DNA of 64,000 nucleotides from Escherichia coli O157:H7 (GTDB taxonomy: Bacteria > Pseudomonadota > Gammaproteobacteria > Enterobacterales > Enterobacteriaceae): the NCBI RefSeq assembly GCF_013167455.1, contig NZ_CP038328.1, one strand, 5' to 3'. The position numbers were made by a program. Positions 1 to 6,000 of this stretch are shown piece by piece (positions within the stretch are counted from its first letter, which is position 1; every line of letters starts with the position of its first letter).

Positions 1-3000
1 TGATTGCTTTCTTTCACGGCCACTCTGCCTGTATGTGCCCGTTTCGATGGCGGTACAGCAGGTTTTCGCTCAAGCAACAGCGCATTCTGGCGCATGATCC
101 GGTAAACACGTTTGGCATTGATCGCAGGCATACCATCAAGTTCTGCCTGTCTGCGAAGCAGCGCCCATACCCGACGATAACCATACGTGGGCAGCTCTCC
201 GATAACATGGTGTATACGGAGAAGCACATCCGTATCATCAGTGTGACGACTGCGGCGGCCATCCATCCAGTCATCGGTTCGTCTGAGAATGACGTGCAAC
301 TGCGCACGCGACACCCGGAGACAACGGCTGACTAAGCTTACTCCCCATCCCCGGGCAATAAGGGCGCGTGCGCTATCCACTTTTTTGCCCGTCCATATTC
401 AACGGCTTCTTTGAGGAGTTCATTTTCCATCGTTTTCTTGCCGAGCAGGCGCTGGAGTTCTTTAATCTGCTTCATGGCGGCAGCAAGTTCAGAGGCAGGA
501 ACAACCTGTTCTCCGGCGGCCACAGCAGTAAGACTTCCTTCCTGGTATTGCTTACGCCAGAGAAATAACTGGCTGGCTGCCACACCATGTTGCCGGGCAA
601 CGAGGGAGACCGTCATCCCCGGTTCAAAGCTCTGCTGAACAATTGCGATCTTTTCCTGTGTGGTACGCCGTCTGCGTTTCTCCGGCCCTAAGACATCAAT
701 CATCTGTTCTCCAATGACTAGTCTAAAAACTAGTATTAAGACTATCACTTATTTAAGTGATACTGGTTGTCTGGAGATTCAGGGGGCCAGTCTAATGATT
801 GATTGGCAAGTCTGACTTCTCCGCCGCAGTTTCCTCATGACTGCGGTTTTTTTTATGCGCGTTATGCCGTCACTGAATCGCGCTCAACATACCGATCCAT
901 CTCCAGCTTCACATCCAGCATCATCAGCATGCCTTCAACAACACCTTCCGCTTTCTGTAGCCGCTTTCCGATATGTCCATCAGAGCATCCATGCTTACGT
1001 GCCAGCGCCATAAACGTTTTCCCCAACACGTAATAATCAACCAGCAAGTCATGCAGATCGCTGTTGTTCCTGTTAAGGCGAGCCATACACCCGCATATAA
1101 TCATCGCGTCATCGTCACAACACTGTGGACGTGATTTTACTTTTTCGGGGATCAGTCCCTTAAATTCGGCAGCAATGGGCGACCATGTAACATCCTCATA
1201 GTTATTTGCCGCCCACGCCCCCCATCGTTCCAGAACCTGCTGAATATCACGCATCAACATCACCTTGCGAATAATTATTGGCAACGGTAACTCCGTACAG
1301 TAACTCCGTACATCCCCGTAATTCGGGGTATATACCGGACGGAGGTTAAAATACGAAAATTTCGTAGGTTGTGAGTATATTTCAGATAGTCGGTTGCTCA
1401 GCTAATTTTTCTAGAGTAGGTAGTACTACGTCGCGTAGTTACTGTTTTTTGATAGTACGCTTTTTCAGCATGCATCCCCCTTGTATACATTTAAAACAAG
1501 GGGGCTTTACTTTCTGATAATAGAATTCTTCCCACAGTTTCCTGTCAGGATTCAATTATTTGTTTTTAACAGCGTGAACAAATAAAAAATCTCCGAAGAT
1601 TTATCCCAATTACACTGCCAGCCAGAGCCATAAACATCCACAACCATCCATGTAAACTTCCTGATGCAGTTCCATCGAAGAATCCTCCCAAATTACAGGA
1701 AGCATACGCTCCTCCTGTTCCCATAAGCAATCCACCAGTTATTCCTGCCATTATGCTTCCACGAGTCAGAGGCTCTTTGATCCTTTTTCCCGTTAGTACA
1801 GTAGCCATTGCAGCCCCCAGCAATCCACCTACGAACATCCCAACCATAGGATTCTGAAATAATGGTTTAGTAATAACAGAATTATCAGATAAAACCCCAA
1901 GAAATGATGCAGTATGCAAGGATGTATCGTAGATGGCTCCGGTAATTGTCCATGCTGAACCGTGCATTGCCAGAACCAGTGAGTTCAGTACAGCTATAAT
2001 TAACCCGCCAGAAAGAACAGTAAATCTGTTATCTTTCCAGAAAGAACCACCACTGGTGATAATTTTAGATATTTTCCCGGTGCGTTTTTTCTCAATGTAT
2101 GAAAAAACAAGGTATAGTATCAATATAAATACAAGACTTAATAACATGCCTGACCACAAGCCGCCAGTAATATCTTTGGTGGTAATAATTTCTCCGGGAA
2201 AAATTGGTTTTAGCACTGGCTTATAGTGATTGCCAATTAATGTCCCTATACCATAGCAGCACAAAACAAACCAAAATGCCGGACGGCCCTCACCACAACA
2301 ATAGAGTGTTCCTGACGCACATGCTCCGGCAATTTGCATTCCAATACCAAAAACAAACGCACCCACCAGAAAAGGGATACTTATTGCTGTAATATTCCCA
2401 ACCATCTTCCCGCCAAAAAAAGCATGGCTGAATGACAGGCAGAGTGTAAACAAAACCACCTCAAGAGCGATGGTAATTAAGTGAATCCTTACATAGTATG
2501 AGTTGCTCATGGTCAGCATGTCTCTCCAACCTGCAACTATCCCAAATCGACTAAAAGACAATGTAAAACCCAAGAAAAAACCAATAATTGCAAGTACGCC
2601 CCACTTCATACCAAAACTATTAGCAAGCCAGTAACTAAATGACAGCATGACAATAAAAATAAATAATATAGTTATGTTTTTCTGAAGCCTTATTTTATAC
2701 ATTTTTAATATACCTATATGTTTCCACGTGATGCGCTGATGTACTTGCTGAAAAGGAATCGTTCCAGAAATGTATCTACGCAATATCCTGAACACGTTAC
2801 CCAAAATGCCTGTTCCAGAATGATACTCACCTATAAATAACCGTCAATATGACGCTCAAGTACTTTCTGTGAGATAATGCAGCGAATTGATACGTAAGCG
2901 TACAGCGAGGGCCGTATTGACGGGGATGTGTTATTCAGCTGGCAGTGCTATGCGCCACGGAAGCAGTTCGCTGACCCGGTTGACCGGCCAGTCTGCTATG

Positions 3001-6000
3001 ACGCCAAGCACATGGCGAAGGTAGCTTTCTGGATCCACGTCATTCAGTTTGCACGTCCCGATCAGGCTGTACAGTAGCGCTCCCCGCTCACCACCATGGT
3101 CAGAGCCGAAGAACAGGAAGTTTTTACGACCCAGACTGACCGCCCGCAGGGCATTTTCAGCGATGTTGTTGTCGATTTCCACCCAGCCATCGTTCGCATA
3201 GTACGTCAGTGCCGGCCACTGGTTAAGTGCGTACGCGAACGCCTTCGCCAACTCTGAGTGTCGCGACAGGGTCTTCATCTTTTCACGCAACCAGCTTTCC
3301 AGGGATTTCAACAACGGTTTCGTTTTTCGCTGACGTTCAGCAAGCCGCTGCTCTGCCGGCATTCCCCTTATATCCGCCTCTATGGCGTACAACTGACCGA
3401 TCTGCTCCAGGGCTTCTTCCGTCAGTGCTGACGGGATGCGGACGTGCACATCGTGGATCTTTCGGCGGGCATGAGCCCAGCAGGCAGCTTCCGTTATCCC
3501 ACCATTGCGATACAGCTCGTTGAACCCGGCGTACGCATCCGCTTGCAGCACACCGCTGACCCTGCATTGCGGTCATCACGAACATACGCCCACAACCGCC
3601 CGGTCTTCGTCTTCTTATTACCCGGCAGCAGTACCTGGACCGGGGTATCATCGGCATGGAGTTTGCCGTCAGTCATGACATAGCCATGAAGCGCCTCTTC
3701 CAGCGGAGACAGCAGCCGGCAGCATGCATCCACCCAGCCCGACAGCAGTGAACGGCTCAGCTCCACACCTTGCCGGCCGTATATTTCTGACTGGCGATAC
3801 AGCGGGGTGTGCTCTGCATACTTCGAGGTCAGCACGCGGGCCAGCAGCCCCGGTCCGGCGATACCCCGCTCGATGGGCCGCGAAGGTGCAGGTGCCTGCA
3901 CGATGGCATCGCACTGAGTACAGGCATGTTTTTCCCGTACCGTCCGGATAACCCGGAAGGCGCTACGCATCAACTCCAGCTGTTCGGCGGTATCCTCGCC
4001 CAGATAGCTCAGTGAACCGCCGCAGTTCGGGCAGCACGGCGCCGCAGGCAACAGTCGCTTTTCGTCACGGGGTAGTGATTCAGGGAACGGCTTACGGGTG
4101 CGGGTCTGACGCAACGGACGCTGTACTGCCGGGTCATACACCCTACCAGTCAGCGTATCGCTCTCTTTCTGAAGCCGGTTCAGATCGGCTTCCATTTGTG
4201 CGATACGGCGGGAGACTTTTTCGGAACGACTGCCGAAGTTCATCCGGCGGAGTTTATCCAGCTGCGCCTGCAGATGGTCTATTTCGCGCTCCCGGTTGCT
4301 CAGCTTTTCCTGCAGGGCGTGGATCAGCGCTTCCTGTTCGGCCAGGCGCTGTTTCAGCAGGAAGATGTCGTCAGAAGAGATGTCGTTCATAAGCCCGTAT
4401 TTTACCGGGCTTATTCTGTGACAACCAGGATAAAGAGATTTACAGCATGGTCAGGGAGGTCAGCAGCCGCTTAGGCTGTCGCCAGTCGATACCTTCCAGC
4501 AGCATCGCCAGCTGCGCCTGCGTAAGGAACACTTTGCCATCACGGGCTGACGGCCAGGCGAAGCGCCCACGCTCCAGCCGTTTGGTCAGGAGGCACAGCC
4601 CGTCACCGGTGGACCACAGCAGTTTAACCTGACTGCCGCTGCGGCCCCGGAAAATGAAAACATGGCCGGACATGGGATCGTCTTTCAGCGCCGTCTGTAC
4701 TTTCGCAGCCAGGCCGTTGAAGCCATTTCTCATATCGGTGATACCGGCAACCAGCCAAATTTTGGTCCCGGAAGGTAACGGGATCATCGCTTCAGTTCCT
4801 GTATCAGCAGAGTCAGGAGCTTTTCGCTGACATTGCCATTGAAGCGGAGCGTCCCGTGCCGGAACGTTACCTCACAGCTGATACTGAGGGTTTCCGGGTC
4901 CTCTGCGAGCGATTCTGGCTGTTCGGCAGCTGCATCGAGAGTCACAGGAAGTAGCTGGGGGCTCTCTGAAGAAGGTAATAGCAGCTTTCCCTCGCGCCAT
5001 TGTTGTCGCCATTTGAACAACAGATTGGCGTTAATGCCATTTTCAAGAGCAAGTTTTGAGATGGATATCCCGGGTTCACAGGAGGCAGCAACGAGCTGCT
5101 GTTTAAATTCGGGAGGATAATTAGGGCAGCCTTTTCGCCTGCCGGGAGTCACATTTTTCTGCATATCTGATACTTTGGTTCCCACTACTTATTTGGTGGA
5201 CACCACTTTGTCTAATTCGTCAGATTCTGACCAGACGGTTCAGGCTGTACGCTTACATTGATACTGACAATTCAACGTCCGTCATCGCTCCCCCAATGTG
5301 TTGAGGTTAGGTAGAAATGATAACAAATACACCGCTCCTGCCCCTGTAACCTCCCCTTTTTTATACGCTCATTTTTGCGCACTTTTTCGATCATCACGTA
5401 TCGGTTTCGTTTTGCGCTTCCTGTTGCGTTTCGTTTTTGAGAAAAATGCGCAGTTTTTTGCGCACTTTTTGAGGTGTCTATCCCCCTGCAAGCCGCGTCA
5501 TATCTGGCTTTGCTCTGTTTGTCTGTGTGATCGATTTTGTGATCAGTTTTATGATCGATTTGCGCACTTTTTTGCGCATTTTTTCAGGGATTTTTCACCC
5601 CATCGAAGAGGCTTCTAAGGGGCTGTGAAGTGGGTAGCATTTTGCTGTGATGGAAGGACTACCGCTACTGTCTGATAATGGTGACGGAGGCCGCTATGTT
5701 CGGCTCTGATTGCAGCCTGCCGTATATTCACCAATTTACCTGGCTGTTATTTCCATAACCCGTAATGTCGCCGATCCCGTCTGATTCCCATATCGTCAAC
5801 AGTCTTATTTACAGCATCCTGAAGTTCGCAAGGCATATTTCCCGCCGTCTGGCTATATGTTCTCGCTGCGGATCGGTGTGGGCCTCTTTCATTACGTCAA
5901 GCCAACGAGCGGCGGCTCTTCGCCATAGTCCCTGAGATTCCAGTTGTTCGGCTTTTTTATCAGTTATTGTGTCCATATTAACTTCCGTCTCTTCGCCCTG

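Follow-up and report, generated by a model that had tools for sequence, protein, structure and literature searches.

The stretch of Escherichia coli O157:H7 chromosome analysed here (64,000 nucleotides, hereafter the window) carries, between dinD and yicC, a P4-like integrative, prophage-like island of approximately 19 kb. The cargo of the island comprises a tyrosine integrase adjoining yicC, a P4-type primase and an Icd-like protein, as well as SSB and ProQ/FinO-like proteins, several PerC-family regulators, a Q-type antiterminator and a YeeE/YedE transporter. Within this island, positions 2894-5256 are occupied by a 2363-bp copy of ISEc8, an IS66-family insertion sequence that measures 2442 bp when intact. 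The insertion point is intergenic. A PerC-family gene lies on its upstream side and the annotated YeeE/YedE start 191 bp away on its downstream side; all of these are encoded on the minus strand. The features of the locus are the following:

2886-2893, no strand: target-site duplication, left copy, ATTGATAC (direct reading)
2894-5256, minus strand: ISEc8 with a 79-bp internal deletion (alignment to intact ISEc8: two substitutions and one 79-bp gap)
2894-2906, plus strand: inverted repeat of the tnpC end, perfect over the 13-bp core GTAAGCGTACAGC and imperfect outside it
2931-3551, minus strand: tnpC C-terminal fragment, 206 aa, without native start codon; DDE_Tnp_IS66 130-283 and the IS66 C-terminal element
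3494-4390, minus strand: tnpC N-terminal fragment, 298 aa; leucine-zipper and zinc-finger domains, DDE profile 1-107
3554-3559, no strand: deletion junction, single retained CGCTGA (alignment; 40-bp junction probe)
4440-4787, minus strand: tnpB, IS66 Orf2-type accessory protein, 115 aa, intact (PF05717, 131 bits; NF033819; no nucleotide difference from the reference)
4784-5164, minus strand: tnpA, HTH accessory protein, 126 aa, intact (PF01527; NF047595; no nucleotide difference from the reference)
5244-5256, minus strand: inverted repeat of the tnpA end, perfect over a 13-bp core
5257-5264, no strand: target-site duplication, right copy, ATTGATAC (direct reading)

The element was compared with RefSeq-annotated copies of ISEc8 rather than with the ISfinder entry, the reference being the intact 2442-bp copy of strain 12690. 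Across the 2363 aligned bases the nucleotide identity was 99.9%, and the near-identity along the whole length is interrupted only by a pair of substitutions and a deletion of 79 bp. By the ISfinder convention, copies of the same IS share more than 95% DNA identity. A nucleotide search found the window copy at 99% identity or more in 3962 E. coli records. The element is ISEc8 carrying a 79-bp deletion in tnpC (a pseudogene), and not a new element. Reading of the ORFs revealed the layout that is characteristic of IS66, with three consecutive genes on the same (minus) strand, a 4-bp overlap of tnpA and tnpB, and a tnpC region at 2931-4390. The HTH_Tnp_1, TnpB_IS66 and DDE_Tnp_IS66 profiles all exceeded the Pfam cut-offs, and the NCBIfam equivalogs IS66 TnpA, IS66_TnpB and transpos_IS66 were matched. 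Taken jointly, the pieces of tnpC carry LZ_Tnp_IS66, zf-IS66, DDE_Tnp_IS66 and DDE_Tnp_IS66_C (Pfam/NCBIfam).

Both termini are without difference from the intact reference and, as is typical of IS66, their inverted repeats start with GTAAGCG. The 13-bp core GTAAGCGTACAGC has exactly two occurrences in the 64-kb window, where 0.05 would be expected by chance, and none of 100 shuffled sequences contained two or more matches; outside this core, the ends of ISEc8 are just partly complementary. An 8-bp target duplication has been reported for IS66 (PMC6778807), and the window copy is flanked by a duplication of this length. The empty site was reconstructed by placing one ATTGATAC between the left and right flanks (500 bp each). 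At least 37 complete E. coli genomes matched this 1008-bp query in one piece over its full length, with 100% identity, and 80% or more of it was covered in 61 genomes. Strains of serotypes O157:H7, O103:H2 and O111:H8 are among those with the empty site. Because a single-copy empty site exists elsewhere, the two copies of ATTGATAC represent a genuine target-site duplication, and the sequence before insertion is established. An earlier note, made from the sequence of the window, had described an IS66-family tnpA-tnpB-tnpC element of about 2.36 kb with an intact 8-bp duplication on both flanks that defines the pre-insertion sequence. This description agrees with the present results, which specify the element as ISEc8 of 2363 bp, place the duplication at 2886-2893 and 5257-5264, and recover the predicted single-copy site in other genomes.

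Alignment with intact ISEc8 located the differences at window positions 3314 and 3755 (substitutions) and after position 3553 (the 79-bp gap). Intact ISEc8 contains two copies of the hexamer CGCTGA, 79 bp apart from start to start, and 79 bp are missing from the window. On the coding strand, the first of these repeats corresponds to TnpC codons 278-279 (Ser-Ala), and the deletion takes out codons 280-305 and one further base, thus shifting the frame. The 298-aa fragment consists of native residues 1-279 followed by 19 out-of-frame residues and a TAA codon at 3494-3496. The 206-aa fragment matches residues 307-512 of intact TnpC (512 aa) without any difference, and the substitution at 3314 is therefore synonymous; that at 3755 is nonsynonymous (R212S), the sole one among native residues 1-279. 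In the intact protein the DDE_Tnp_IS66 profile is continuous from 1 to 283, whereas in the window it is split into 1-107 and 130-283 (Pfam), and the NCBIfam transpos_IS66 match is split likewise between the two fragments. Profile positions 108-129 are absent and the halves lie in different frames; besides the frameshift, approximately 26 residues of the DDE catalytic core are physically gone. An IS66 TnpC is expected to have a continuous DDE domain together with zinc-finger and leucine-zipper domains, and in the window copy these domains are present with the DDE domain interrupted. Given the 99.9% nucleotide identity to intact ISEc8, the interruption represents a defect of this copy and not an argument against IS66 membership. 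The same allele is already annotated in RefSeq as a 'frameshifted' IS66 transposase pseudogene. A search by sequence for a solved structure on which to place the deleted residues returned none for TnpC or TnpB.

The splitting of TnpC into pieces of 298 and 206 aa around 3550-3640 had also been proposed in the earlier note, and the ORFs at 3494-4390 and 2931-3551 confirm it, with the frame break at 3553/3554 coinciding with the left edge of that range. The note had suggested aligning the element to ISEc8 in order to locate the indel, allowing that a continuous TnpC frame might appear; in the alignment the frame is broken, and the indel is not a small one but a deletion of 79 bp. A programmed frameshift, or a functional transposase made of two parts, was considered as well and is ruled out, since intact copies have one continuous 512-aa ORF and 26 core residues are absent from the window copy.

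The occupancy of the site was analysed in 5426 genomes with a probe made of 800 bp of left flank and the adjoining 860 bp of the IS. ISEc8 was found at the same site, with the same flanks and orientation, in four of these genomes. In F6667 and 10205 the probe was matched in one piece, as in a copy carrying the deletion, while in F8798 and OkiPb01717 it was matched in two pieces spanning 79 bp more, as in an intact 2442-bp element. A 66-bp probe over the deletion junction failed to tell deleted from intact copies, two 36-bp halves being reported and joined. In a 40-bp probe the halves fall below the megablast word size, so that intact copies are not seeded; among the 5426 genomes this probe matched F6667 and 10205 only, at one place each, and it matched none of the 72,556 plasmids searched. 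Public genomes thus hold three states of the site, namely empty, with an intact insertion and with a deleted insertion. Over 22 kb the backbone of the window is 100% identical to O157:H7 strains, and the chromosomal backbone of 10205 is approximately 0.6% different from it. F6667 is without the IS2 that fills window positions 1-794 and has an extra 184-bp stub, and both F6667 and 10205 differ from the window by SNPs. The window is thus distinct from both of these deletion-carrying genomes.

These data make it very probable that ISEc8 inserted at ATTGATAC, subsequently lost 79 bp in place between the CGCTGA repeats of tnpC, and with them its own transposase; we infer the order of events, insertion followed by deletion. 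An intact 2442-bp ISEc8 would have transposed into the intergenic ATTGATAC, with the 8-bp duplication that is usual for IS66 insertions, and at a later time, at the same site, the 79 bp between the two direct repeats would have been lost, most likely by slipped-strand mispairing or another microhomology-mediated deletion. A deletion whose endpoints coincide precisely with a 6-bp repeat bears the signature of such a process. Intact ISEc8 has 157 other pairs of repeated 6-mers at spacings of 20-200 bp, so that substrates for slippage-type deletion are plentiful. Hairpin-assisted slippage was also considered and rejected: when the intact region was folded as single-stranded DNA, the deleted segment had no unusual hairpin potential (z = -0.36), and no special structure is claimed.

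The characters of the five copies at this site (the window and four genomes) fit no single simple tree. The SNP 3755G is common to the window and F6667, 4599T is common to 10205 (deleted) and F8798 (intact), and the 184-bp stub is common to F6667 (deleted) and OkiPb01717 (intact). Such conflicts suggest that a single deletion in situ may not be the whole history, and that recurrence, or gene conversion between IS copies, may have contributed. It is possible, if doubtful, that the 79 bp were lost repeatedly at the CGCTGA microhomology, or that gene conversion from intact copies restored the full sequence in some lineages, rather than there having been a single event. The four-gamete conflicts among the deletion, the stub and the SNPs 3755 and 4599 point in this direction, as does the finding that the islands of the window and 10205 have three differences in 16 kb on backbones approximately 0.6% apart; a near-identical island on differing backbones indicates that the island moves between lineages. 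Against this, the evidence consists of five sequences and single SNPs, and recurrence at exactly the CGCTGA pair would need a reason when so many other 6-mer pairs are available. Recurrent deletion, collapse of the stub and IS gene conversion could each explain the conflicts, and five sequences do not separate them.

It is very unlikely that the deletion is older than the insertion, in which case a defective ISEc8 would have been mobilised in trans into ATTGATAC by the TnpC of another copy. The intact ends, tnpA and tnpB would be compatible with such an origin, as would the coexistence of intact ISEc8 copies in such genomes. Opposed to it are the intact ISEc8 of F8798 and OkiPb01717, whose 8-bp target, orientation and island are those of the deleted copies, and the private SNP 3314A, which is common to the intact copy of F8798 and the deleted copies; furthermore, no donor with the junction was found elsewhere among the 5426 genomes or the 72,556 plasmids. 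That the broken frame results from an error of assembly or sequencing and masks an intact ISEc8 is scarcely credible. Multi-copy IS elements are hard to assemble, and F8798 and OkiPb01717 do have an intact copy at the very same site. However, the identical deletion is present in the complete assemblies of F6667 and 10205, which are independent and can be distinguished from the window, and the loss of 79 bp at a 6-bp repeat is unlike the homopolymer-type error typical of long reads. With three independent sequences sharing the deletion, an artefact is effectively excluded.

Under the preferred history of insertion and subsequent deletion in place, the deletion and its frameshift leave a copy that encodes just a 298-aa truncated TnpC and a C-terminal remnant that cannot be started. 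Judging from its sequence, the window copy would be unable to supply its own transposase and would have lost its autonomy, as the earlier note had suggested from the split frame. With both ends and both accessory genes intact, this copy could in principle be moved by TnpC acting in trans, which is available in related genomes, as these contain 11-23 places with ISEc8. No sign of trans-mobilisation was found, the deletion junction being at one locus only among the 5426 genomes and 72,556 plasmids, which is consistent with an absence of movement without proving it. Two further readings, that the putative 298-aa stub is a trans-dominant modulator and that the CGCTGA pair is a recurrent deletion hot spot, are jointly improbable. 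The stub retains the leucine zipper and zinc finger as well as the initial third of the DDE domain, and, if expressed together with intact TnpA and TnpB, it might modulate the 10-20 intact ISEc8 copies of the same genome. The hot spot is hinted at by the discordance of characters between the five copies at the site.

Two IS elements predominate in O157:H7, and ISEc8 is one of them; the strains Sakai and FRIK804 each carry nine copies (PMC7430833). ISEc8 is also active in this serotype, as exemplified by a stx2a::ISEc8 insertion (PMC6776261). The window copy has the same tnpA-tnpB-tnpC layout, termini and 8-bp duplication as ISEc8 in general, and differs by a tnpC that is 79 bp shorter and in which TnpC is a frameshifted pseudogene, by R212S and by one synonymous substitution. 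The three-ORF organisation, the 8-bp target duplication and ends of the GTAAGCG type are known from the prototypes IS679 and IS66 (Han et al. 2001; Machida et al. 1984). These prototypes resemble the window copy in layout, duplication and end type, and are different members of the family. All three ORFs of IS679 are reportedly needed for transposition; if this requirement holds for ISEc8, the window copy cannot move alone. ISCro1, which belongs to the same family and has the same architecture, is nested in OkiPb01717 inside the ISEc8 copy at this site; it measures approximately 2.7 kb, has a distinct sequence and a larger TnpA, and is absent from the window. Internally deleted, non-autonomous IS derivatives likewise combine intact ends with a defective transposase and can possibly be mobilised in trans. 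Compared with such derivatives in general, the window copy is single and unamplified and has kept two intact accessory genes.

The feature is an ordinary one: the IS is known, its decay is of a familiar type, and the allele is already annotated in public genomes. Its significance is mainly one of bookkeeping, the appropriate annotation being ISEc8 with 79 bp deleted from tnpC. For the biology of the family, the deleted copy represents a natural tnpC-null, tnpA+ tnpB+ ISEc8, which could be used to test the action of an IS66-family transposase in trans.

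Comparison of the strains with ISEc8 at the same insertion site revealed that F6667 and OkiPb01717 carry, directly after ISEc8, an additional 184-bp copy of its tnpA-side end, which is equivalent to window 5073-5256. The features considered here are as follows.

Features of the ISEc8 site, its surroundings and the compared sequences
window 1-794: IS2 copy, inside which the window begins
window 3314, 3755, 4599 and 5171: conflicting SNP positions in the five-copy comparison
window 5073-5080: octamer GGTTCACA, within ISEc8 tnpA
window 5363-5387, 5446-5470 and 5560-5584 (also 5434-5486 / 5548-5600): iteron-like repeats
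L001 (compared sequence) 8364-8547: 184-bp stub, tnpA-side ISEc8 end
L007 (OkiPb01717) 449-3514, reverse complement: ISCro1 and stub region

In both strains the sequence reads ...GCTTAC up to the stub junction and GGTTCACA after it, and the position equivalent to window 5171 is a C in the first copy and a T in the second. Since the two strains share this C/T difference, the stub must have been inherited and is no assembly error. OkiPb01717 additionally has a 2698-bp ISCro1 in the same 8-bp target, GGTTCACA, with a duplication, and thus a single octamer within ISEc8 appears to have been targeted twice by IS66-family elements. The window has neither the 184-bp stub nor ISCro1.

The five ISEc8 copies at the site failed the four-gamete test, as the SNPs listed are at odds with which copies carry the 79-bp deletion and which do not. 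This hints that the deletion recurred or that IS copies underwent gene conversion with one another.

Immediately right of ISEc8 there are repeats that resemble iterons and are based on TTTTGCGCAC/TTTTT(T), accompanied by an 11-bp inverted pair, AAAAATGCGCA / TGCGCATTTTT. Both are intergenic, downstream of the PerC-family gene, and they could be binding sites of the P4-like island.

The IS2 copy is inserted within the island, where a hypothetical gene and the Q-antiterminator gene flank it, and is common to the window, 10205 (whose annotation makes it a pseudogene interrupted by an internal stop) and OkiPb01717, while it is absent from F6667 and F8798. In F8798, an O157:H7 strain, the island adjoins clpS/clpA on its left side instead of dinD (L004, the F8798 sequence, 1-2701), which suggests a chromosomal rearrangement or another integration context for the same island.

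Compared to 10205 (L006), the island part of the window (1-16000) showed 3 differences in 16 kb, whereas the adjoining core (16001-36453) showed 132 in about 20 kb (~0.6%); the window core was 100% identical to that of O157:H7 strains. On these comparisons, the island, together with its deleted ISEc8 and an IS2, has apparently passed from one E. coli lineage to another.
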